Source: Eledone cirrhosa (Eukaryota). From it: a DNA stretch of 64,000 nt. Positions within the stretch are counted from its first letter, which is position 1; every line of letters starts with the position of its first letter. The notes beneath the pieces were generated by a model, which was given only the letters and a program-made list of their open reading frames with translations, was not told the DNA's origin and ran no database searches. The DNA is taken from assembly GCA_964016885.1 (NCBI GenBank), contig OZ024742.1, positions 297,104,001 to 297,168,000 of the forward strand, in the 5' to 3' direction. Below are positions 2,546 to 38,266 of the stretch, one piece after another. The position numbers and the translations under genes were made by a program.

Positions 2546-2644
2546 TCTAATTGGAGTTGTGACCGATGTACTAGTAACTGGAAAGACCGATGAAAACATT
2601 GTTTCCTCGGTCCGATTTGACGAAAGTCGATCGATCCTTTATAT

Positions 2645-2975
2645 TATATTATATAGGAGCCACTTCTACAAAATTTAAAGAACGCTGGTATAATCATAAA
2701 CATACATTTAATAGGTCCAATAAAAAATGTTCCACATCAATTTCGCATCTAATTTGGCACTTAAAGGACAATAATATTGACTATTCAATCTCTTGGGGAA
2801 CGATTTCGAAAGCACCCGCATACCGAAATATGGCTTTCTCAAGAATCTGTCATTTGTGTATTGAAGAAATTTTTTATATACTCACCTGCCAAAATTCTAT
2901 CAACCTATAAATAAAATTATTCAGTTCCTGCAGACATCGTCAAAAAATGACTTTCCGAAGTATTTATAATCTATA
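2645..2975 (+). pseudogene. PLE GIY-YIG endonuclease C-terminal remnant
   Basis: YYIGATSTKFKERWYNHK..SISHLIWHLK..CHLCIEE.., then SCRHR after a stop; homologous to the C-terminus of the 20113 ORF. Confidence 0.85.
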
Positions 2976-13699: not shown

Positions 13700-13865
13700 A
13701 TGCTGCCAATAAGAACACAAGTATCTGTTGATTTTCACTTCAATTTATTATAAATTTTCAGTTGGTTGGTTTGATAACCAGATGGTTGTTTATATATTAT
13801 CAAAGCTTTTTCATCACACATTCTGTGACCTCCTCAGAGACTGGGTTTTTATTTTGTGTCTCTCA
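13700..13865 (-). mobile_element. HHR-bearing pLTR-like repeat (same family as 24350-24650)
   Basis: Minus ~13798-13841: CTGAGGA-G-GTCACAGAATGTGTGAT-GAAA-AAGC-TT; flanks match 24435-24610. Confidence 0.65.
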
Positions 13866-15129: not shown

Positions 15130-16107
15130 CAGTAAACATGGGTTAGACGGGTTGTCCTGTTGTGGGCAGTGTCTGGTTGGCTGATCATGCCTTGCTCATA
15201 CAGGAACTGATTTGGGCTTGATTTCTACAGCTGGATGCCCTTCCTAACACCAACCTCATTTACAGTGAGTGCTGGGTGCTTTTTTTCCGTGGCATCTACA
15301 CATCCACTTTACAGTGTGGGCTGGGTGCTTTTTTGCCGTGGCACCTCCACGACCACTTTGCAGTGGGAGGGTGTGGGGCATATTGTCTATATGCTTCAGC
15401 TTGTACCCATGGGAGGTCGGGTACTCTGTATTACTGTGTGACGCCAGAGGTCACGGTCGTGTGTCATCACCTTTGAGAGGTGTAATTGGGTAAGGTCGGC
15501 TTTTATCACCTCATCCCAGGTCTTCTTGGGTCTCCCCCTCCGCGGTTTCCATTGACTTCTAGTGCTCTGCACCTTTTTATGCAGCTCTCATCCTTCATAC
15601 GCATCACATGTCCATACCAACGCAACAGCATTTGATTCCTCTTATGCTCAGTCTCTCTCTCAATTCATTTATGCTTTGCCGTTCGCGTATATTACTATTA
15701 CACATCCATCGGAGCATGCAGGCTTCGTTTCTTTATAATCTACATAAGTCTTCCACCTTCAGCGCCCAGGTCTCACTACCATGTAACATTGCTGTTCGGA
15801 TACACGCATCATACAGTCTGCCTTTCATTTTGAGAGAGAAGCCTTTTGCAGCTAGCAGTGGCAGTAGTTCCCTGAACTTCTTCCATCCCTTTCTTACCCT
15901 AGTTATTGTACTTTCTGAACACCCACCTCCGCTGCTAATTCGGTCACCTAGGTAACAGAAGCTGTCTACTGTTTCTACAGAGCCCTCCCAGAGATTGGTG
16001 GTACTTGTTTCCTGTGGCTGTTTGCTGCTTGCTGTCCCAGCACAGCTGCTACATGTGAAGCCTACATTCTTAATTAAGCTTCCTGAGATCCCGCTACATC
16101 TCTTGTG
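15130..16107 (-). mobile_element. 5'-truncated RTE-clade LINE
   Basis: VDSFCYLGDRIS..KGWKKFRELLPLL..GRLYDACIRTAMLHGSETW; highly similar to 35593-36705; 5' end abuts (TA)n. Confidence 0.9.
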
Positions 16108-16372
16108 TATATATATATATATATATATAAGTAGAAAATAACTATATGGTTTATACACACACACATATAAACACATACACATAAGGTTAACAGATGAAAA
16201 ACTCAATGTGTTTGTCTTTGCAGGCTGAATAGTGAGAAATGTCATTTAAGAGTAGAAGAAAAGTGGTATATTTAATGAAGAGTATATAGAACAAATTGAT
16301 ATGATAGATTAGAATACTTAAAACAGTTCAGTAAAACACTTAGCCTAGATAGACATAATAGAACAAATATTA

Positions 16373-19904: not shown

Positions 19905-20112
19905 GATATTAATAAATGGAAACTATATTTATAAAACCATATTTATTTCATTATACAGGGATACCAAATTAAATTATGGTATGCCTTCATCGGACAAAAT
20001 ACAATATATAACAGTTTTACAAATAAGCTTTGACGTACCCTATTAAAATGCAACCATTATTTTTGGAAGCCATCCGGATAGTGAGTTGTTTATATTATTT
20101 TAATAAGTCATA

Positions 20113-21984
20113 GTGTTAAGGACAATTAGAAAAAGACGGAGAGAAAGAAACGACCTTATATTGAAAGAACTAAGGAAAAAGTACAAGGTAGCAAATAAGG
20201 ACGAACTTGATAAACTGAATACAGATGCATCTTGTATAATGCATGAATTAGACATTGAGAATAAAACACAACCCTTCATGCCTAGGAAACCTAAGATCAA
20301 TATGAAGGATCACAAAAGAAACTTTGAAAATGATTTACCAGTCAGATTAATTGCACCATCTAAATCTGACCTGGGAAAACTTAGCAAAAATATTCTAGAC
20401 AGGGTAATACAACAAATTAAAAACTTACCTAATTTATCTTACTTAAAATTATGGAAAGGTACTAGTGAGGTTATCGATTGGTTTAAAGAAATTAAATATA
20501 ACTATGATCATAAGTTTATTCAGCTGGATATTACTAACTACTATTCATCTATCACTCCTAATCTACTGAATAAGGCACTAAATTACGCATTTAAACATAC
20601 AGACCTAACTAGCAATGAAATGCACATTATATTATCGGCAAGGAAAACATTGATAGAATTTAATAACCAACTCTGGACTAGGGCAGATAGAAATAATAAT
20701 TTCGACATAACTATGGGATCATCAGACTCAGCTCAGGTAACGGACCTTGTGGGCCTATTTATAATTAATTCGCTACATAGAAAAATACCAGGTGTAACCG
20801 GAGGCTTATATCGTGATGATATGCTTTTACTTATACAAAATAATAGCTGTGAACTAAATAGAAAAAGAAAACAAATTATACAATTTTTTAATTACCTTAA
20901 CCTAAAAGTAGAAATAGAGAATAACCATAAAATAGTCAATTTTCTTGACGTAACACTAAATCTCAACACATGTGTTCATTATCCATTTCATAAACTAAAT
21001 GAGAACTTGAATTATGTTAATTTTAACTCTAATCACCCCAGATCTGTTAAAAATACTATAGTGAACTCTGTTCAAGAAAGAATAAAAAAAATTTCATCTA
21101 ATAAAATTATATTTGATGAAAAAGCGCAGTACTACAACGAAGCGTTAGGTAGAGCTGGATATAGAAATAAAATTAAATACATTGATAATAATAATAATAA
21201 GCAAACTAACCAAAATAATAACAATTTTAATTATGGTAACAAGTTTAACAACTATAATAGAAAACATTACAATAATTCCAAAAGCCGAAAAAGAAATAGA
21301 ACTAGAAATATATTATGGGTTGCTCCCCCTTTCTCACTAAATATTAAAACCCCTATTGCTAAACTATTCTTTAAAGCTCTTGACAAACGCTTCCCTAGAA
21401 CACATAAATATTACTCAATTTTTAATAGATACACTATAAAATTAACTTACTCGTCCACCAAAAATTTAGCACAAAATATTAATAGAATTAATAATAGAAA
21501 TTTAAAACCTAACCAAAATACCAATAATAACCCAAGCAATATTCAATTGAATAACTGTAACTGTAGAAATAAATCTAACTGTCCGTTAAATAACAACTGC
21601 TTAGCTAAAAATGTAGTGTACAATTGTAATGTTAAAACTAATTTAAATTCATTTAACTATGTTGGTTCTACCTCTACAGAATTTAAATTTCGCTTCAATA
21701 ACCATAAAAATTCTTTCACAGATCCAAACAAAAAATCTTCAACTTCGCTATCTAGCCTACTATGGGACCTAAAACGAGATAATGTTAAATATTCGATGAC
21801 TTGGAATATTATTTCATAAGGTACTCCTTTTAATTCCTCTTCAGAAAATTGTGATCTTTGTATTGAAGAAATATTCTTTATATTAAAGTCCAAAAATTCC
21901 CTTAATTTAAGGAACAATTTATTCAGTTGCTGCAGACATAGATTGAACTCAACGTTTAAATATAAATATAAATTTAAAATGTAG
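20113..21984 (+). CDS. PLE reverse transcriptase + GIY-YIG endonuclease; N-truncated, one in-frame TAA at 21817-21819
   Basis: KDHK..RLIAP, LDITNYYSSI, TMGS, LYRDD, NFLDV, SNHP; CNC..CPL..C, VVY..YVGST..RFNNH; frame continues after the stop as GTPFN..CDLCIEE..CCRHR to TAG at 21984. Confidence 0.92.
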
Positions 21985-22473
21985 TATAATTAATTAAGTA
22001 ATTTAGTTAATATATGAAACTTGTCGATAAATCATTAGATTCCTTCACCTTTTTCTTTTTAAACTTTCTTCCTAAATATAAACATAGATATAATAAACTA
22101 CTCTAAAATGTCTATACTTCCAATGTCTTAAATAAAATATACGTAAGATAAATTTCTATACTAAATATAAGGATATCTGTAGAATCCTTGGGTTTTTTAA
22201 ATCTTTTAAATTTTTAAATTTTTAAATTTTTTTAAACTTTTTTAAATTTTTTAAATTTTTAAATTTTTAAATTTTTAAATTATATTGATATAATATTTAT
22301 TTAACTCTTATTTTTATTTTTATTTTTATTTTTATTTATTTTAGTTTTGTTTTGATTCTGATAGCTTCTCATAATTTCCCATAAGTCTACCCTTTCAATA
22401 TCTAGATTGAAATATACCTAGGATAAATTTCTATACTAAATATATGAAACATATTATTTTAACTTAAGATACT

Positions 22474-22987
22474 CTAGTATTTCAGTATGCATATGTAGAT
22501 GTACATTTTTAACTTAATTGTTTAAGCGTCAGTCATACAAAAGTGAGTTACAAACGAAACGAAATTTAATTTCGTTTCGTTATTTGTTTTTATCGTCTCC
22601 GCTGAACCGGTGCGTACTCACACTCTATGCAAATTAGTCTGCCCACTACTAATTTTCATAGAAAAAGCATATAACGATATGTGCTTTTACAATTCTCCAG
22701 AAAGGCCGGTAGATAGGTAAATATTGCTGATGAGTTGTAACAACAACGAAACTAGTTCAATATTCCTTGTCTGGCTTTCTGGAGAATAGGGGGAAGGTGT
22801 TCCCCCAAAAACCAGTATGACTCTAAAAACCGGTTTGTCTGTGTGTTTACATACAGAATAGCTGGGCCGCTCACTGTAAAGCGACCAGTGAAAGACTTGG
22901 TACACCTACATATGTATACGTGTGTGTATTCATATACACACTAGTATTTCAGTATGCATATGTAGATGTACATTTTTAACTTAATTG
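22474..22987 (+). mobile_element. Retrozyme-like HHR unit, copy 1 (467-nt unit + 47-nt terminal redundancy)
   Basis: Identical 47-mers at 22474-22520 and 22941-22987; octamer at 22627-22634; HHR at 22720-22764; several hairpins; homology to 27160-27570. Confidence 0.75.
22720..22764 (+). ncRNA. Type I hammerhead ribozyme
   Basis: AATATTG-CTGATGA-GTTGT(AACA)ACAAC-GAAA-CTAG-TT-CAATATT; stem I extended by TTCTCCAGAAAG/CTTTCTGGAGAA. Confidence 0.9.
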
Positions 22988-23631
22988 ATATTTGATTATC
23001 TCTATACAAATGTGTATGTGTATTAACATGCATATAAAAGTGTTATAGGTTTTTTATGATTGTATATATGTCTATGTATACATAAGCGATGCGGGAAGAC
23101 GCAAGCAAATATTTATTTATACATATATATGTGTATATATATATATGTATATCTATGTGTGGGTAAGAGATATGTTGCTTAACCACGCAGTTTTGATTGC
23201 AGATATGCATAATTTTAACAGAATGTTAAATGCATGAATGGTAATCGTATATATGAAGACAGGAATGTTAATCGTATATATTTATGTATATATACTGTGA
23301 ACTTTTTTATAACACAAGGAATGTATAGCAGTGATTAAGAGAAATCGTCTGCGTTTTATATGTCTATATTGTTGACTTGAGTAAATATATATATATATAT
23401 CTTTTTTCACCATGCATCTCTCTCTCTCTCAGATACTTCTCCACGATTTTTTCACGATTTTTTATTTCTCTCTCTCCGTCTTTTTCTTTCTCTCCGTCTT
23501 TTTCTAATTCTCCTTAACACTATGACTTATTAAAATAATATAAACAACTCACTATCCGGATAGCTTCCAAAAATAATGGTTGCATTTTAATAGGGTACGT
23601 CAAAGCTTATTTGTAAAACTGTTATATATTG

Positions 23632-23696
23632 TATTTTGTCTGATGAAGGCATACCATAATTTAATTTGGTATCCCTGAAATATGTATAATGAAATA
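23632..23696 (+). ncRNA. Minimal type I hammerhead in PLE pLTR
   Basis: TATTTTGT-CTGATGA-AGGCATACCA..TGGTATCCCT-GAAA-TATGTA-TA-ATGAAATA. Confidence 0.8.
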
Positions 23697-23824
23697 AATA
23701 TGGTTTTATAAATATAGTTTCCATTTATTAATATCGTATATCTACTCCAAATACTTGTCGAGTGCTTTATATCAGTTATAAAAATATTTACTTGTTGTAT
23801 CCCAACAATTTTAAATAGAACTTT

Positions 23825-23865
<41 letters not shown>

Positions 23866-23873
<8 letters not shown>

Positions 23874-24222
23874 GTGAGGTTTTTTTTTACAAAATGAAAA
23901 ATAACCGAGGTGTCCTACACGAGTGGAAGTATAAAGAAAAAGGGATGAAATCGAAAATGCAACTGAAGTCTTATTTTTTTTTTAAATATATATATTTATT
24001 TGGTTCCTTTACCGGTTTCGCAGTTCTTCTGCTTTTCAAAAGGTGAGTTGAGATGGAGGGTCTGTGGTTTTTCTCACAGATGTGAGAAAAACCACAGACC
24101 CTCCATCTCAACTCACCTTTTGAAAAGCAGAAGAACTGCGAAACCGGTAAAGGAACCAAATAAATATATATATTTTTTAAAAAAATAAGACTTCAGTTGC
24201 ATTTTCGATTTCATCCCTTTTT

Positions 24223-24228
<6 letters not shown>
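23866..24228. mobile_element. Fold-back solo pLTR of the Neptune-like PLE family (~300-bp palindrome)
   Basis: 23930-24228 near-perfect inverted repeat centred ~24079; arms homologous to 29620-29821; (TA)n on both sides. Confidence 0.85.
24116..24153 (+). ncRNA. Minimal hammerhead, U3-A8 core variant (mirror copy 24006-24043 on -)
   Basis: CCTT-TTGAAAA-GCAG(AAGAA)CTGC-GAAA-CCGG-TA-AAGG. Confidence 0.75.
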
Positions 24229-24321
<93 letters not shown>

Positions 24322-24564
24322 GATATTAAATAAATGGAAACTATATTTATAAATTTCGTTTCTGAATTTGTTTAGCAAGATTCTTTATCTGAAAACGTGT
24401 GTTGAAACCGATATTGTTATACTTTGGGAGGGTCATGTTGCCAATAAGAAACACACGCACCAGTTGCTTTCACTTCAATTTATTATAATAAATTTATAAA
24501 TTTAGGAATTTATAAATTTCCGGTTGGTTGGTTGGTTCCACAACCAGATGGTTGTTTATATATT

Positions 24565-24607
24565 GTCAAAGTTCTTTCGTCACACATTCTGTGACCTCTT
24601 CAGTGAC
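24565..24607 (-). ncRNA. Minimal hammerhead in pLTR-like repeat 24350-24650
   Basis: GTCA-CTGAAGA-G-GTCACAGAATGTGTGAC-GAAA-GAAC-TT-TGAC on -. Confidence 0.75.
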
Positions 24608-25269
24608 TGGGGATTCTTTTCTTTGTTTTTTGTGCCTCTCCTTTGTTCTGTCCTACGCCATCTTGTTTTTAAAAACAATGAATGAATGAAACAGAAGCCT
24701 TTTCTATATTAAAAAGATATATATATATATCTTCTCTTTTCTTCGCCCACTTATTATTGAGAGGGTTGTGGGGGTGAGACCAGCCACACTCATGGATGTT
24801 ATCCAACCATACCATCTTGCTCGGGGTCTCCTACACATAAAATATGTCCTGCGTTTCTTTCCTGAGGCATTCTAACCACATGCCCATAGTATCTGAGCTG
24901 GGATCTCTCAATTCGGAGAAGTAGCAGCTCTACCTGGAGTGACTCTCTGATCATCATCACTTCTCTCAACAGGTAGGTACACCGTACGCATCATCTCTGT
25001 CTTCTTATCCTTAACTATTTCCTTTCACCAACCTTATCTTTCTGCTTTCCCTTACAACAGCTATTTATCTTGTGCAATTTCACAAACAAATTTTCTATAT
25101 TCTATTTAGAATTTTTATTTCGTGTAATATCGTATTGTTAATATCGTATTGTCACATCTCAATTAATGTATTCTAGCTGCTTTCGAAGAAAAGAAAATGA
25201 CCCCCTCCCCTCCAACACTCCAAATAACAAATGTTCATTGATAATTATTTCTTTTTTTTTGTTTTTTAG

Positions 25270-25400
25270 TGTTCTGCCAGACTCAGGGTTATTTACTCGA
25301 GTAAATGTCACCGGAATCGAACTACTAAATTTTATAAAGAAAAGGATAAGATATTTTTACATAACACCATATCGAATGAGAGTTAATTCCCATTACAAAG
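25270..25400 (+). CDS. Candidate internal exon of an unknown host gene
   Basis: Polypyrimidine tract + TAG at 25269, AAAG|GTAATG at 25400, open frame VLPDSGLFTRVNVTGIELLNF..SHYK; no recognised homology. Confidence 0.3.
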
Positions 25401-25412
25401 GTAATGATAAAA

Positions 25413-25716
25413 CGTAAGCAGTTGCTCGGAACGGGTATCGAATATAAGTCTTCATTTTTATTGTAGTTCCATGTTATAATTATTGTAAACAAATATTCTA
25501 GTACATAATTAGGTATAGTCCAGATCCATGATAGGTGGTCAGAGAAAAGTTAACATGCTTGTCTTCAGTGTTGTCAGTTCGAAGGAAGGCGTCAAAAAGT
25601 GAGAGAGCTTGACTGCGTTGCCGCTATTTATATCCTCTTTCCAGAAGTTACAAAGAGGGTTCTAGACTTTCGACGGGAAGTAACTCTAGCTACTTCCCTG
25701 TCTAGAGAACGCTACA
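25413..25716 (-). promoter_or_regulatory. Solo-LTR-like or promoter-like segment (HSE-like motifs, TATA, AATAAA)
   Basis: On -: starts TGTAGCG, TTC/GAA arrays (TTCTGGAA, TCTAGAA), TATAAAA ~25626-25632, Inr-like TCACTT ~25 nt downstream, AATAAA ~25457-25462; no TSD found. Confidence 0.35.
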
Positions 25717-25984
25717 GTTTCTATTTTGTCATTGCTCTGGGTAATTCCATTCTATGTTATATCATTTTAAAATAGAACTATCGAATGAATGTCATTTTGT
25801 TTTAATCCTTGCGGAGAGATAATACCATTTTACTTTTTGTTTTGTTTCGTCTTTATTTTTCTTGTTTTAACCATGTGATTTGTTGCTGTTGATGCTACAC
25901 TAAAAACAAATATACAAATGAATGCTTCATTATTAGAATCATAGCCATAATAGCATTATCAGTTGTCATCATTCTCCACCTCCT

Positions 25985-26164
25985 TGCAGTATCGTTAGAG
26001 AGTCTGACGCCATGCTTTGCTGCAAAGAGTTATTGCCCTTCTTGATCTGAGTTCAAATCCCGCCGAGGTTAACTTTGCCTTTCATCCTTACGGGGTCAAT
26101 AAAATAATGTACCAGTAATACAATGAGATAATTGCTGACCTTGTGCCAAAAGTAGAAACAATTA
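25985..26164 (+). mobile_element. SINE family A
   Basis: Matches 1147-1341. Confidence 0.75.
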
Positions 26165-26263
26165 CTGTCATCTTCAATATCATTGACACTTTTCCATCAT
26201 TGCATGAATATTGAAAGCATAAAACAGTTATTTAATTATTTATAGTTCGTGTTCTTGTACATA

Positions 26264-27116
26264 TACGAGGTGATATCAAAAGGTTCCCAGCTTAGTTATG
26301 TTTAAAATATATATATATATATTTACCTACGTTTTAACAAAATCTCCTTTGAAATAGTCACCTTGCACAGTTATACACCGATCCCAGCATTCCTGCCACT
26401 TTTGGAATCCAGCCTGGATGTTTCTTTCCGTTAGTTAGTTGAGGACCTTCTGCGATTTGCTCTAGATCTCAGAAACAGTGTTATAACAGTGAACTTTGAG
26501 CTGCATTTTGAGCTTGGAGAAGAGATGGAAATCTACAGGTGCTAAATCTGGTGAATAGGTTGGGTGCAGAAGCGATAAAATGTTTTTGGCGAGAAACTCA
26601 CAAGTGAGGAGAGCATGGTGACAGGGTACATTGTCGTCAACTCTTCGCACTCCACAGATCTGGTCACCTTCAGCGAACATCTTCCCTCAAATGCCTCAAA
26701 ACGTTTCAGTAGAACTGCTGAGTATTTTTCTCAAAATATTTTTGGGGTGGTCTTCCAGAGCGCTCATCATTCTTCCCCTTTTGAAGTGCCTGTGCCAATC
26801 AAAACATTGTGTACGGCCCAGTGTCTTGTTGTCGTAAGCTTACCGAAGCATGCTCAATGTCTCTGTAGCAGACTTCCCAAGTTGAACACAAAATTTCATG
26901 TTGGCTCTTTGTTCCAACTTCCTGTTCATGATAAAATCGCAGCATACATGTGATCACAAAAATACAAATTTCACAACTTGCGAAGTTCACACAGTGATGT
27001 CACACAGCACACTGGCACATGAAGGTCACTGCTAGCTCTCACTGCACATGCAACTGTGTGTTGCAATCTGTTGGTGCGCTACAGAACTAGTCCAGAAAGC
27101 TTTTTGATACCACTTC

Positions 27117-27119
<3 letters not shown>
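26264..27119 (-). mobile_element. Internally deleted mariner (Tc1/mariner) transposon
   Basis: TIRs TACGAGGTGATATCAAAAGG../..TTTTTGATACCACTTCGTA with TA ends; HPTYSPDLAPVDFHLF motif; HTH-like N-terminus MKFCVQLGKSATET..CFDWHRHFK. Confidence 0.9.
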
Positions 27120-27159
<40 letters not shown>

Positions 27160-27162
<3 letters not shown>

Positions 27163-27570
27163 GGAATAGGATGAAACGAAATTTCATTTCTCACTCTTAA
27201 TACGGCTGATACTTAAATGTAAGTATGTACACGTACATACATATATGTATACAGACGTACAGTAGTATGTATATATATATGCACGTATGGGTTTACCGAA
27301 CAATTATCATAATGTTCGGTTTGTTTGTAAACAAACAGCCCGAATTACGCCGTACAGTGTTTGGCAACCATCGTCGACTTTTTGTTCAACACTGACACAG
27401 GAACGATGTACTAGTTTCAAGCTTATTAGCTATCGTCAGCATCGTATACCTTTCTGTCAGATGATTGAACGTTTGAAAGTATATACTTTTCTTATGCATA
27501 TTAACGGCTGAGCAGCCTAATTTGCATATCGAGTGAGTTAGTCGGCCGGGCGTCCCGAAAACGATATATA
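27160..27570 (-). mobile_element. Retrozyme-like HHR unit, copy 2 (circularly permuted relative to copy 1)
   Basis: Octamer (ATTTGCAT at 27520-27527 on +), HHR at 27403-27445, shared motifs with 22474-22987 in permuted order; TA-rich flanks. Confidence 0.72.
27403..27445 (-). ncRNA. Type I hammerhead ribozyme
   Basis: ACGATG-CTGACGA-TAGCT(AATA)AGCTT-GAAA-CTAG-TA-CATCGT on -; stem extended by CTGACA/TGTCAG and TTGAAC/GTTCAA. Confidence 0.9.
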
Positions 27571-28315: not shown

Positions 28316-29337
28316 ATACTGATTAATGTTCAGAGCCATCCTCGGCATTCTCGTGTAGCACCCATCCACCATCTGAGTGAGTTTCCTGGTCAGTGTCCAA
28401 GTCTCAGACCTGTACAGCAGCACAGACTCCGCAACAGCAATAAAGAGGTGGATCTTCAGATCTTCACGAAGGTCCGACTTCCACACCGATCTCAAGCTGT
28501 GGCACGCCACCCAGGCTAGGCTCTTCCTCTCAACCACATCATCTTCCGTATTCCCAACCTTTGCTCCCAAATACAGGAAGTCCTCAACTAATTCCAGCGG
28601 CTTCCCGCCTACATTAGTAATCCCCTCTGGCTTCTCAACATTCTCTACTAGACATTTTGTCTTAGTCTCATTCATTCTCAGCTCCACACTCATCGATACA
28701 GTCTCAAAATCCTGCATCAAATCCTCTGCCTCATTCACTGTATTTGTCACCAAATCTATGTCGTCGGTAAATTCAGCATCCGATATCTTTTTCGCCTTAA
28801 CTCTCCTGCTCTGAGCTGGTGTTTCAGTAAAGCCAGAGTCCTGGCGTTTCTCCAGTGCAAGGCGCATACAATAGTCCACTACGATGATAAAAAGGTAGGG
28901 AGCCAATGTATCTCCCTGGAGCACTCCAGCCATCAGGTGTAATGACTTGGGCTTTGGTGTTGGCGTAGAGCAGTGATATCAGGTCCACTATCTTCTTGGG
29001 GATTCCATAAGCCTGTAAGAACTTCATCAGTATACACTGAGGATGAAAAACTCAGAGCTGTACGGGAGCCTCCCAAAAGTCAGCTCAAAAGTGACACAGA
29101 GGAGACTGATGTTAGCTGGACATGCTCACTGACGTCCAGAGTTGACACTGCACTCAGTGCTTCTGTGGGAGCCCCTGCATGGACACACTGGAAGACGAAG
29201 ACCAAGGTTAACGTATGTTGATGCCCTTAAGGACAGACGCTGGTCTGTGGGAGACGCAGGACATGGCAGCGATAATGAGGGACAGAGACCGTTGGAGAGA
29301 ACTCGTTCATAGATCTCGGGAATTTTACCCGCCCTAG
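28316..29337 (+). mobile_element. RTE-clade LINE with 5' inversion
   Basis: 28316-29027 on -: GVLQGDTLAPYLF..EFTDD..FLYLG..RMALNINQY; 29026-29337 on +: QYTLRMKNSELYG..RRLMLAGH..LLWEP..RPRLTYVD; (TA)n flanks. Confidence 0.88.
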
Positions 29338-29619: not shown

Positions 29620-32600
29620 ATATTAGAAAATGAGGGTTTTTTACAAAATGAAAAAAAACGAGATGTCCTACACGAGTGAAAGTATAAGGAAAAAAGATGA
29701 ATTTGAAAATGGAACTGTAGTCTTTTTAAGAATATTTATTTGGTTCCTTTACCAGTTTCGCAGTTCTTGTGCTTTTCAAAAGTAGAATTGAGATGGAGGG
29801 TTTGTGGTATTTCTCACATCTGGTTGGTGTTCGGATGTTACTTCTGTTTTATATGGAAAAAAGTGGCTCGAAATGCTAGGTTTTTAGAAAAGTGATTTGG
29901 TTGGTTGAAGACTGTCACGTGAATAAGTATAATAAATTTCGCGCCAGTTCGCGTTACAAAGTTCTTATTATATTTGCTAATTAAAAGGGGGGGGGGGGAG
30001 GGCTCAGATTGTTTTTTCATATATGAGTGAAATTTGGTTGGTTGATGCAGTCACGTGAATAAGCACATTAACTTTCGTGCCAGTTTGTGTTTGAGTTTCT
30101 TTTTACTTAAAAAAGTGGCTCAAAAGGTTTTTTTTATAAATGTAATTTGATTGGTTATAAATGAAATTATTATTCTCATGTGAACAAGTACATTAAATTC
30201 GGCCCAATTTTGGAAATTTTTTGTAGCCATTTAGAGAATTTTGTGCCAAACAAAAGATAATGGTCAAGAAAAATTGAGGAATTGTTCTGGTTCAGTGAGT
30301 ATGGCTGATGTGCTGAGATGTCAAAATTCAGACATTCTATTGAAATAAAGAAAGTAGAGATATATATTTTTATTTGTGTGCTAGTGTGTGTGTGTGTGTA
30401 GGAAAATGATTCTATTAGTAGAAGTGGGGGAGGGAGTTATGTGTGAGTGTATGGGTGTTATATGTGTGTGTGGGAGTATGGTTAGCATGTTAAGATGGAG
30501 AGAATATATATTTGTGTGTGTGTGTAGGAAAATGATTCCATTAGTAGAAATGGGGGAGGGAGTAATGTGTGTGTGGGGGTATGGTTAGCATGTTAAGGTG
30601 TTAGAGTATTAACGTATGTTAAGGTTTATTTAGCTCTGGTTTTTATTTTCGAATATAGAAGGTGTTATGTGTGTGTATGTATGTGTCTAGTTGGATGGTT
30701 AGCATGTTATGGTGTTAACATAATGTATATTAAACTATATTTAATTCTGGTCTGTATTTTTGAATAAACATATTTTCCTTATTTATTCGTATTTGTTCTG
30801 TTGTATTGTCAGCGCAAAGATAAAATGGGAAGACTTGGAATTTGAGGGTCTTATCACTTGCGCATATGTCTATATGTGCACTGAGTGGTATCTGTCTTGT
30901 GGCAGGGTCTCATCATTGTTGGCGAAGAATTGTCATTCTGTTTCTGAGTGTGAGTTTAGTTTGTCTTATATAATCCTCATTGCATCCTTTACATTTAATG
31001 GCATAAACTAAATTTTTTGATGAGCAAGTGAAGTGAATTTTTACAACAAAATTTTGTCCTGATTGAAATGTATACATGTTGCCTTCAATGAGGTGAGTGC
31101 AGGTTCCACAATTAGAGCGACCACATTTTTTGACAGTTGGTTGTGGTTTTGTGGTAGGTAATTTGGCATTGGTGAGTAATGTTTTTAAGGATTTCGGTTG
31201 TCTTTTGCTTTTGATTATTTTGTGTGTTTCAAGGGCTTTTTCATTCTTGGGTCTTGTTTCAATAGTGGAATGTTCTTGTGAATAATGTTGTAAGCTTCCG
31301 CATTTCTTGGGTTGTGTGTTGAGATATATGATAGAATATTGGACGTACATTGAATTTGTTTCTGTTTTCATAATTCATCAATACCTATTGCTTTAGCCCT
31401 TTCTATTCCATTATTTATTAGTAATGGTGGGTCTTTCGAGCAGAATTTCCTTTAATTCTTGAAGTCTTTTATTTCGCGTTTCATAATTGGAGACAATTGT
31501 GCAAATTCTTCTTGCTAGGTTAAAAGGAATGTTCGTCTTCGTGTGCGTTGGATGGTTGGAGGTGAATAGCAGGTATTGTTTGGAATCTGTTGTGTTGTAG
31601 TGTATGTCAGTTTCAATATTTGTGTCTTTTTTTAATGATTAAGATGTTCAGAAATGGGAGTTGATCTTGCCTGTATTCCATTGTGAATTGGATGTGGTTA
31701 TTGATGCCGTTAATTAAATTTTTGAAATCATTTAGTTGGTCGAGTGTGTGAGACCAAATAATAAGACAATCATCCAAGTAGCGTTTCCAATTCTCTGATA
31801 AATATTTGTGGAAGTTCAATCCGTATTTTGATTTGGAGTGTTCATATATCTGAAGTTCCAAGTATGCCATGACTAAGTTAGCATAAGTTGGAGTGACTTT
31901 TGTACCCATTGCAGTCCCCGATATTTGCTTGTAAGTGCTGCCATCGAAATCAAAAAAGTTGTTCTGTAAAATAAATGTTAATCCCTCTGTGATGAAGCTT
32001 TTTTCTATTCTGTCAGGTATCTCATTGGGATATTTCTCTAGCCAGAATCCTATTGCTTCTAGTCCGTATTGGTGTGGGATCGTTGTGTAGAGATTCATTT
32101 CATGGAAAGACACAATAATATTGTCGTTGTTGACATGTTTGGGGAGGTGTTTTAAGAGGTCCAGATCGTCTCTTACAAGGCTTGGTAATTACGAGATTAT
32201 AACCAATCAAATTTCATTTATAAAAAAAACCTTTTGAGCCACTTTTTTAAGTAAAAAGAAACTCAAACGCAAACTGGCGTGAAAGTTGATGTGCTGCATC
32301 AACCAACCAAATTTCACTCATATATGAGAAAACAATCTGAGCCCCCCCCCCTTTTTTAAAGGCAAATTTAATAAGAACTTTGTAACGCAAACTGGCGCAA
32401 AATTTATTATACTTATTCACGTGACAGTTTTCAACCAACCAAATCACTTTTCTAAAATCCTACCATTTCGAGCCACTTTTTTACATATAAAACAGAAGTA
32501 ACACCCGAATACCAACCAGATGCGAGAAAAACCACAAACACCCATCTCAATTCTACTTCTGAAAAACATAAGAACTGCGAAACCGGTAAAGGAACCAAAT

Positions 32601-35592: not shown

Positions 35593-36705
35593 TCATCATC
35601 ATCATCACCGTTTTACGTCCGTTCTTCCACGCTAGCATGGGTTAGACGGGTTGTCCTGTTGTGGGCAGTGTCTGGTCGGCTGACCATGCCTTGCTCATAC
35701 AGGAACTGATCTGGCTTGGTTTCTACAGCTGGATGCCCTTCCTAACACCAACCTCATTTACAGTGAGTGCTGGGTGCTTTTTCGTGGCGCCTACACGTCC
35801 ACTTTACAGTGTGGGCTGGGTGCTTTTTTGCCGTGGCACCTCCACGACCACCTTGCGGTGGGGGGAGTGGCGGCATATTGTTTATATGCTTCAGCATGTA
35901 CCCATGGGAGGTCGGGTACCCTGTATTACTGCGTGACGCCAGAAGTCACGGTCGTGTGTCATTGTCTTTGAGAGGTGTAGTTGGGTAAGGTCGGCTTTTA
36001 TCACCTCATCCCAAGTCATCTTGGGTCTCCCCACTCCGCGGTTTCCATCAACTTCTAGTGCTCTGCACCTTTTTATGCAGCTGTCATCCTGCATACGCAT
36101 CACATGTCCATACCAGCGTAACCGCCTCTCCTGCACGCAGCATTTGATTCCTCTTATGCTCAGTCTCTCTCTCAATTCCTTTATGCTTTGTTGTTCACGT
36201 ATATTACTGTTACACATCCATCGGAGCATGCAGGCTTCGTTTCTCTCTAATCTACGTAAGTCTTCCACTTTCAGCGCCCAGGTCTCACTACCATGCAACA
36301 TCGTTGTTCGGATACACGCATCATACAGTCTGCCTTTCATTCTGAGGGAGAAGCCTTTTGCAGCTAGCAGTGGTAGTAGTTCCCTAAACTTCTTCCATCC
36401 CGTTCTTACCCTAGTTATTGTACTTTCTGAGCACCCACCTCCGTTGCTAATTCGGTCACCTAGGTAGCAGAAGCTGTCTACTGTTTCTACAGGGCCCTCC
36501 CAGAGATTGGTGGTACTTGTTTCCTGTGGCTGTTTGCTTGCTGTTTCAGCACAGCTGCTGCATGTGAATCCTACATTCTTAATTAAGCTTCCTGAGATCC
36601 CGCTACATCTCTTGTGTACCCATTGTTTGCATTTGGGGCAGAGAATGGAGTTCCTACCTACACCTTTCCTACATACTGAGCAAGGCCATTTTCCTGTATG
36701 GACTA
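35593..36705 (-). mobile_element. 5'-truncated RTE-clade LINE with PHD-like finger, C-terminus and 3' UTR ending in (GAT)n
   Basis: GKWPCSVC..CPKCKQWVHKRC..CSSC, FCYLG, RRLRWYGHVMR, GRPKMTW. Confidence 0.92.
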
Positions 36706-38266
36706 GAATAGCCTGAAATAATGTGTTACCAGGAATCAAACACATGACTTTGATAATGAGCCGATTTGTTATAAATGTAAAGATGATTAGCTTGACTGAG
36801 TATGGAACAATCAATCTAAGGATCATTAGCTTATTGAATGCATGATAAAACCCCTTTTGACATAATCTTCTAGAACAAAATTCTTAACCTATTGGACTCA
36901 AACTCCATATAACAGAACAAATAGTAATACATAATTTGAATATATATTATAGTTTTAGTTCAATCTTTATCAGGTAAATTACATTTCATAATGATAGCTA
37001 TTAAAAACTATCAATAGATTTTGTTTTATCTTTTACTGCTTTATTATTGTACTATGTGGGTTTTTTTTTATCTAGCTGTAGTGGGAATTTTGCCATAAGG
37101 GTGGGTTACATCCGGTGGGGATATTCTCTTGGAGATTTTATCTGTATCCATTATGATTTTCACTATCACAATTCACTAGATATAATAGATCTGGAATGGC
37201 ATACAACTGTCATTTCCAACAATGTAGAAGAACACGCCTCATCAGTAAACAGTACATATAGCTACAGTTTGTCCCTGTAGCATAGAGGATTGGTGAGTAA
37301 GACTAAATAAGGATTTCTTTATTATTTATTTATTTATTTATTACTAAATAATGATAACTTTATTGAAGACTGTTGTTAAGCCACATTGGATGGCCCTCAC
37401 TCTTTCCCAGACTCTTCTCTCCCCTGGGTATCCCTAGGTCAGAAGAATGGCATAAGGTCAGTGGAACTGGATGCAGGGTCTACCCAGAAAATTAGTAATT
37501 CTAGAGTCAAAAGCCTTAATGAGTCCTTTTAACATTTATAGGTTTTATGAATGGTCATTGACTCCTTATAACAAGCCTGAGGCCTCTACCATTAAAACAC
37601 TTATGAAGCTTCCTCCTATAAGATGCAATCTGGAGGCTGGTGAAACCTACACAAGTGTGAGCTATAACAACAACATCCACCCTTGTAATAAGGGTGGGTG
37701 CTGTTATTATTATTAGCTCTAGACCAGCTCTGATTGAACAAATGTATGATCAAAATCATTCCAGTTATGACTTTTGTAGTGTATCTCGGACTACACTATC
37801 CTATAAATTCTCCATTTTTCTTTTACAGAGTATAATTTGAAATTTTCTGCTATATATAATTGGACATGTGATACTTTAAGATTTACTTGTTAAGTTATTT
37901 AATATATCATAATGGTTATGTGAACTATTTTATGGATAATGCAATGCATATTATCACCAACTCTCTAAATATATTGATTTACAGGAAATGATAGTGAAAG
38001 AAAATGCAATATCTATAGACCTGGAAGATATGATATCATATTAATAGGAGTAGCCTCATGTATTTATAATAAGAGTGCACTTGTTTAGAGAATTTAAATT
38101 CTTTGTAATACAGAGAAAAAAAGAGAATTTTTAGAAGAAAATTGGAAGTGATTAATACAATTATCTAAATCCAATTCATTAATGATGAAATAGAAGTATA
38201 TGAAACTTTTAATAATTTGTATTCTATGAACTTTGATAAAATAAAGCTATAACACACACACATATA

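Follow-up and report, generated by a model that had tools for sequence, protein, structure and literature searches.

We examined a window of 64,000 nt from Eledone cirrhosa (GenBank assembly GCA_964016885.1, contig OZ024742.1, positions 297,104,001 to 297,168,000), which is the whole stretch of DNA analysed here, and followed two hammerhead-bearing repeat units from it into the rest of the AT-rich, 3.0-Gb genome. All the evidence comes from DNA sequence. A first-pass annotation had described the two units as diverged, circularly permuted copies of one non-coding design with an octamer and a hammerhead ribozyme, i.e. a candidate new retrozyme family. The block order, coordinates, and hammerhead cores that it gave for both copies were reproduced on re-reading (Table 1). 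Copy 1 belongs to a family named F1 here and copy 2 to a family named F2; the family unit is ~420 bp in F2 and 467 bp in F1, and these are related units, each with a minimal type I hammerhead. Neither unit contains a stop-free frame of at least 110 codons, the length to which the scan was limited. Copy 1 sits in the 3' untranslated region (UTR) of a host Penelope-like element (PLE), a point overlooked in the annotation, and it stands there in place of ~154 bp of host sequence with short microhomologies at both junctions.

Table 1. Coordinates of the two retrozyme copies and of the host PLE in the window.
Feature	Position	Strand	Remarks
Copy 1, F1 retrozyme insertion	22474-22987	+	One 467-bp unit (22474-22940) plus 47 bp; stops at F1 short 3' end
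Copy 1 block B ("tail")	22520-22593	+	Between the two fixed 3' ends; 13-bp hairpin at 22553-22581
Copy 1 short end	about 22519-22524		Unit position 46-51
Copy 1 long end	about 22590-22593		Unit position 117-120
Copy 1 U6-type promoter look-alike	22627-22676	+	11-mer 22627-22637; TTTCATA box 22654-22660; TATA 22670; inferred start near 22700
Copy 1 hammerhead	22693-22786	+	Type I, extended stem I; core 22727-22733 and 22748-22757; palindromic stem III
Copy 1 predicted cut	between 22757 and 22758	+	GUU
Copy 1 blocks D/E	22787-22940	+	3-4 hairpins; 2 with compensatory changes among F1 subfamilies
Copy 2, F2 retrozyme	about 27157-27568	-	Exactly one unit (~412 bp), long-end site to long-end site; then (TA)n
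Copy 2 tail (block B)	27157-27215	-	Short-end site to long end
Copy 2 hammerhead	27392-27460	-	Core 27433-27439 and 27409-27418
Copy 2 predicted cut	between 27409 and 27408	-	GUA
Copy 2 promoter look-alike	27479-27527	-	11-mer 27517-27527; TATA 27485; spacing 42
Host PLE, Hydra-clade	20107-23829	+	5'-truncated; reverse transcriptase/endonuclease frame 20107-21816, past one in-frame stop to about 21990
Host PLE own features		+	Hammerhead core 23640; short end about 23744; long end about 23825; ends ~80 nt apart
Inverted partial copy of host PLE 3' end	19905-20150	-	Stops at host PLE short end

Each block of copy 1 was compared with copy 2 by local alignment, with 500 dinucleotide shuffles as the control. 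Block C scored 44 and block B 26, with no shuffle as high in either case, and block D scored 24 (1/500); the weaker scores, all 21, were those of the hammerhead region (17/500), block A (19/500), and block E (52/500). The resemblance in sequence is therefore significant for B, C, and D, and is not for A or E taken singly; of the blocks A, B, and C for which similarity between the copies had been proposed, B and C show it significantly and A by itself does not. The two hammerheads are related by core and structure, not by sequence. Six units (three F1 and three F2-type) align collinearly from block B/C to E, with the promoter look-alike and the ribozyme core invariant.

Insertion ends were mapped for 33 F1 insertions, 22 picked by likeness to copy 1 and 11 by position on contig C1. 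Their 3' ends fell at unit position 46-51 or 117-120 in 52 of 57 cases, i.e. at two sites ~70 nt apart (the short and the long end), and the 5' ends of units were variable. No pile-up of 5' ends at the cleavage site was seen by eye in a sample biased to full-length units. Of the 33 insertions 24 were two-armed, with the arms head to head: 20 paired a short with a long end, four paired a canonical with an odd end, and none paired like with like. If the arms chose independently and evenly, 20 unlike pairs out of 20 would arise by chance about once in a million. The F2-type insertions followed the same rule, since all nine two-armed insertions with both outer ends readable were short plus long (24 loci examined, by eye). 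The flanks of the mapped F1 insertions are mostly (TA)n tracts, copy 1 itself being an exception. The tail lies on one side only, is bounded by the two fixed 3' ends, and measures ~60-70 nt; block B is this tail, and the 1.1-mer of copy 1 has the short end and the 1.0-mer of copy 2 the long one. The apparent permutation of the two copies is due to the two fixed 3' ends (short vs long) together with variable 5' ends, a simpler cause than the random opening of a circle. The permuted ends of the first-pass annotation survive in that 5' ends vary, but the permutation is not free, given the 3' ends. Fixed ends common to all genomic copies, which it had listed as an argument against its own proposal, were found in part: the 3' ends are confined to two sites and the 5' ends are not.

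One-sided tails, inverted 5' copies, and (TA)n targeting by the Hydra clade have been described for PLEs (Craig 2021, PMC8557442), and the PLE tail is reported to be bounded by two internal start sites of the reverse transcriptase (RT), the two strands behaving alike in vitro (Frangieh 2024, PMC11167929). The strict short-plus-long pairing goes further than what we saw in the latter paper. Because the retrozyme ends carry the PLE tail signature, the same as that of the Hydra-clade PLE in the window, we hold with high confidence that F1 and F2 are mobilized in the PLE manner. The translation of the host PLE has a C-terminal GIY-YIG domain with a CxCX5C linker and CxxC and CxH motifs and lacks CCHH; these motifs, with the element's hammerhead and (TA)n targets, agree with the Hydra-clade definition used (PMC8557442). 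Its Atlas neighbours were RT/GIY-YIG proteins, and Pfam and PDB searches with this protein returned 0 matches. In the window and in other copies, the Hydra PLE shows the two ends, and its inverted arm stops at the short site. Copy 1 as a part of the PLE's own UTR was ruled out, as the site is empty in 11 other PLE copies. A joint origin of copy 1 and its host as a template-switch chimera is disfavoured by 0 differences in 514 nt of copy 1 as compared with 13 private differences in 1,842 nt of the host, a weak comparison in which the set was picked by likeness to copy 1 and differences were counted from the family majority. Copy 1 seems to be younger than its host on these sequence differences. 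The host PLE shows that enzymes of such behaviour are abundant here, not that its own family is the helper; several Hydra-like families and one Neptune-like PLE family are present in the genome, and we consider the case for a Hydra-clade helper evenly balanced.

To estimate the size of the group, the genome was searched with an exact pattern made of the octamer-containing 11-mer and the hammerhead core. It gave 24,217 matches and its reversed control 0; a shorter-spacing version of the pattern, excluding F1, gave 18,451. For copy 1, 40 scored candidates yielded 173 matches, most of them 99-100% identical, which indicates a very young subfamily, and older F1 subfamilies lie at 87-96% identity. 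For copy 2, the 40 candidates scored out of 3,388 yielded 77 matches, the best others at 85-95%, indicating an older, larger family. The same promoter block is found in further families, F2b, F3, and F5. The longest arrays (L175-L177) contain ~30 and ~14 units with shared variants of period 7 and period 2; these arrays are heterogeneous, with means of 2.3 and 3.3 differences between units, and some arrays are expanded further by DNA-level duplication. In two of four sequence-run contigs (kind unrecorded) the end of a unit is joined to the start of a unit, as tandem DNA would also show; the four contigs have no bearing on expression. F3, which is older (72-79% identity, 1,542 candidates), and F5 were seen at loci L211, L212, L231-L250, and L245:(-)865. 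F4 is a 310-bp tandem hammerhead family (L221:5186-7001, L214:3300-4300). Its stem III is palindromic, and it has inverted arms and (TA)n ends; it is without the octamer, and its end resembles the F2 long end. In an F2b insertion (L221, around 1410 and 5010), ~27 bp of flank reappears inverted at the opposite end.

In both type I hammerheads stem I is extended and stem III is a 2-bp palindrome. For cleavage, F1 is predicted to use GUU or GUC as the triplet and F2 to use GUA. At the Rfam gathering threshold there were 0 matches in the window. At the E-value threshold Hammerhead_HH9 was placed on 22709-22780 (38.6 bits, cut-off 52, E 2.5e-7), and the copy 2 hammerhead was not among the 68 matches listed. 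Rfam miRNA matches in the window were discarded as hairpin artefacts, one source of which is a near-perfect 149-bp head-to-head palindrome of a common repeat at 23930-24229. Hammerheads with a 2-bp palindromic stem III are thought to act as dimers (PMC4209133); a two-strand fold of the F1 ribozyme gives an intermolecular stem III helix, and the F2 fold is less clean. The folds of two units beat their shuffles with z of -10.3 and -5.6. Over 12 F1 units and 53 named pairs, 98.9% of 636 cells were paired, and 16 two-sided changes were counted (0/500 shuffles). Selection on RNA structure, as suggested earlier, is supported by the paired cells and two-sided changes in F1 and by the fold z-scores; the remark that the stems differ yet pair while the core is kept was borne out in both copies with one flaw, in F2. 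We predict that the hammerhead is very probably active in the master copies.

Block C resembles the promoters of host U6-type genes. Three independent U6 loci carry the same 11-mer at -76, -77, and -78, and the RNase MRP gene carries it at -77, with TATA at -30. At the best U6atac locus the 11-mer lies at -77 with one base changed (by eye), and the other four of five loci are without it and retrocopy-like; an insertion displaces the 11-mer in four of the eight U6 loci printed. The 11-mer was absent from all 13 U1/U2 loci, and a reading of the shorter spacing in the units as the mark of a U1/U2-type promoter was ruled out for that reason. The promoter block is kept in F1, F2, F2b, F3, and F5. 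From these sequence matches block C is a fairly likely candidate promoter; it might serve RNA polymerase III (Pol III), to which we give a little less than even weight, and its use by RNA polymerase II (Pol II) appears unlikely. Several host loci showed features of their own: members of the C19 U6 cluster (L087, L088, L090, L092) have a ~190-bp insertion behind TATA with the TATA-side sequence duplicated; U1/U2 loci L093-L112 share TCAGT near -56 and a TATA-like tract near -30, a candidate Pol II small nuclear RNA (snRNA) promoter; and promoterless U6atac copies lie in (TA)n tracts (L252, L253), one directly behind a Hydra PLE long end, and were possibly retrocopied by a PLE.

The fixed 3' ends constrain the template. 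A cut linear monomer yields at most ~300 nt and never the promoter block, because the 3' ends are fixed, and promoter-bearing copies therefore required an RNA continuous across the scissile bond, i.e. a circle or an uncut multimer. The earlier proposal that such an RNA was reverse transcribed is supported by this logic. In 16 young two-armed insertions with 7,070 nt of overlap, five of five both-arm variants were fixed in every unit and none was index-specific, which suggests a fit to a monomer circle, and we lean slightly towards a putative circular RNA as the template. In our judgement F1 and F2 are likely to be non-autonomous, non-coding retrozymes copied by the RT-endonuclease of a (TA)n-targeting PLE. 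The block C promoter would start RNA ~30 bp past TATA, and read-through of a tandem array into the next unit would regain the promoter, as this is situated upstream of the start that it drives. The hammerheads, with a stem III stable only as a dimer, would then cut multimers to unit length, as their anatomy suggests, and a host ligase would probably circularise the products. The later steps can be seen at the DNA level: the PLE enzyme cuts a (TA)n target and begins copying within the RNA at one of the two fixed sites flanking the tail hairpin. When both target strands are used, one arm comes from the short site and the other from the long site, and the arms run back through one to several units and meet head to head; when only one strand is used, the product is a simple 5'-truncated copy. 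Some arrays were lengthened later by DNA-level duplication. A bolder version, which we put forward tentatively, is that a superfamily of >24,000 units captured a host U6-type Pol III promoter and kept it via read-through and circularisation, and that a dimeric PLE enzyme primes both (TA)n strands at two fixed sites on a single circular RNA and continues round it by rolling, leaving one short and one long end in every head-to-head insertion.

A number of observations tell against parts of this interpretation. Stem II of F2 is closed by U-U instead of the usual purine-pyrimidine pair, a control UTR also folded at z -3.5, the number of pairs with a two-sided change (6) was matched by 60 of 500 shuffles, and the covariation test relied on sequences that are related, with the window copy as the source of the structure; relatedness inflates such a test. 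A homogeneous parent array would give the same five fixed variants, the 23 arm-to-arm differences are private, and the sole PLE tested in vitro used mainly uncut RNA, hammerhead cleavage being unneeded (PMC11167929). The 11-mer and TATA are 40-43 bp apart in the units as compared with 46-48 bp in host genes (3-8 bp shorter), and insects keep that promoter spacing tightly (PMC1761439); between these two elements the units are unlike host Pol III genes. Pol III read-through would meet T5 runs in F1 and, in one F2b variant that is still found as multimers, a T7 run. We use the term promoter look-alike because of the different spacing and because a read-through transcript would cross T-runs of 5 to 7. 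No homology was seen between the unit tail and the tail of the window Hydra PLE (by eye, for this PLE family).

The closest alternative retains the element and its helper and takes the template to be the uncut linear read-through transcript of the arrays, with circles as a by-product. Source arrays of 14 to 30 units exist, unprocessed RNA was used for PLE insertion in vitro (PMC11167929), and arm lengths of up to several units would fit. We find this possible but doubtful: the both-arm variants are not index-specific although long arrays are heterogeneous, the hammerhead stems are preserved by compensatory changes, and circles are reported to predominate in mussel, coral, and axolotl retrozymes (PMC7229834). 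Block C itself might be an RNA element bound by the PLE enzyme just downstream of the start sites, with transcription coming from flanking promoters. It starts exactly at the long end, the anole PLE is described as requiring ~55-60 nt downstream of its start sites (PMC11167929), the block C hairpins bury TATA, the spacing is unlike that of host promoters, and F4 has the same architecture in 310 bp without the octamer. The 11-mer, however, matches host Pol III genes and not U1/U2, even in the bases beyond the octamer, TATA and a near-constant spacing are retained over five diverged families, and enzyme binding and promoter roles can coexist; we regard the RNA element as a sole explanation as unlikely.

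Two further explanations were considered. The units could have been shed, as solo terminal repeats (pLTRs), by an autonomous PLE yet to be found, as PLE terminal repeats bear such hammerheads and promoters (PMC4209133; PMC6765202) and a 2026 preprint derives retrozymes from pLTRs (bioRxiv 10.64898/2026.07.22.740005). But the units make long pure arrays; tblastn with the Hydra and Neptune-like proteins of the window against 167 loci gave matches in ~20; and in the loci inspected (L177, L186) the PLE has its own UTR, with a (TA)n tract between PLE and unit. This origin is in our view improbable. An ordinary satellite spreading at the DNA level by unequal crossing-over or extrachromosomal circles, with a chance or relic hammerhead, would account for the long arrays with period-2 and period-7 shared variants. 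It does not account for insertions that are dispersed in their thousands, target (TA)n, and combine variable 5' ends with 3' ends that are strand-specific and fixed at two sites, nor for the compensatory base changes. The satellite explanation, very improbable as a whole, is largely refuted by the end rule and accounts only for later array growth.

Other mobile elements lie elsewhere in the window. At 24340-24620 (-), and also at 13837 (-), another hammerhead-bearing, terminal-repeat-like element is joined to a Hydra PLE end, and at other loci it appears to have its own short and long ends. A broken Penelope-like RT/GIY-YIG fragment with a Cys-rich linker occupies 30740-32188 (-); we take it to be Neptune-like from its motifs. 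RT fragments, the LINE-type label of which is our assumption, and a second Hydra-like endonuclease end were seen at 15736-16245, 28316-28978, 35894-36883 (-), and 2578-2907 (+). A degenerate, presumably mariner-like element with terminal inverted repeats of ~25 bp lies beside copy 2 at 26266-27117.

The identity of F1 and F2 as retrozymes is supported, and the class to which they belong is already known as metazoan retrozymes of the non-LTR kind (LTR, long terminal repeat; Cervera and de la Pena 2020, PMC7229834; Li, Clavereau, Pollet 2026, bioRxiv 10.64898/2026.07.22.740005). As described there, these have the same short tandem unit, type I hammerhead, low GC, and lack of an open reading frame, occur as monomers to long multimers, and co-exist with PLEs proposed as helpers; the F1/F2 units of 420-490 bp are at the upper end of the reported sizes. 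RNA circles are documented elsewhere in the class (PMC7229834), whereas F1 and F2 are known from DNA alone. Those two papers base the PLE link on co-occurrence and pLTR similarity and we base it on insertion ends; we saw no mention there of two fixed 3' ends, short-plus-long pairing, (TA)n targeting, or the promoter. We concluded that F1 and F2 are animal non-LTR retrozymes on the features that can be tested in sequence, apparently mobilized in PLE fashion. Hydra-clade PLEs and the anole Poseidon are described with the same one-end tail, inverted 5'-truncated arm, partial tandems, microsatellite targets, and minimal hammerhead with palindromic stem III (PMC8557442; PMC11167929). Unlike them, F1 and F2 have no open reading frame, a tail of ~60-70 nt instead of 30-40, and a unit that itself forms the tandem repeat.

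Newt satellite 2 (Coats, Zhang, Epstein 1994, as cited in PMC2220036, PMC6765202), a tandem of ~330-bp units, combines the same dimer-type hammerhead with an internal snRNA-type promoter; it is reported as a Pol II promoter, whereas the F1/F2 element matches host U6/MRP/U6atac and not U1/U2. Schistosome hammerhead repeats are likewise reported as tandem units of promoter and hammerhead, the upstream unit transcribing the next (PMC6765202); the F1/F2 candidate promoter is of the upstream (type 3) kind, no search for a tRNA-like internal promoter having been made. The Chlamys MRC1-type elements are also described as non-coding PLE passengers in head-to-tail multimers, but mostly without hammerheads and with a 3' sequence in common with their helper (PMC8557442); no such helper match was found for F1/F2 in the comparison with the tail of the window Hydra PLE. 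The F1/F2 families, a short-plus-long rule in retrozymes, and a U6-type promoter in a retrozyme were not found in searches of open-access literature; Repbase and Dfam were outside this search and may list the families as unknown repeats.

The mover of animal retrozymes has so far been argued from co-occurrence and sequence likeness, and in this genome the PLE signature at insertion ends is found on thousands of young copies. The short-plus-long pairing predicts that copying starts near unit positions 48 and 120, with one of the two sites for each target strand, a prediction that fits the existing in vitro PLE assay. The promoter block common to five families points towards the U6-type promoter element of this animal, which would be of use for expressing small RNAs. 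If the tentative proposal of two strands primed on one circular RNA is true, these insertions would document directly, in the genome, that an animal circular RNA had undergone twin-primed rolling-circle reverse transcription, and would give insight into the origin of PLE tails and inversions.

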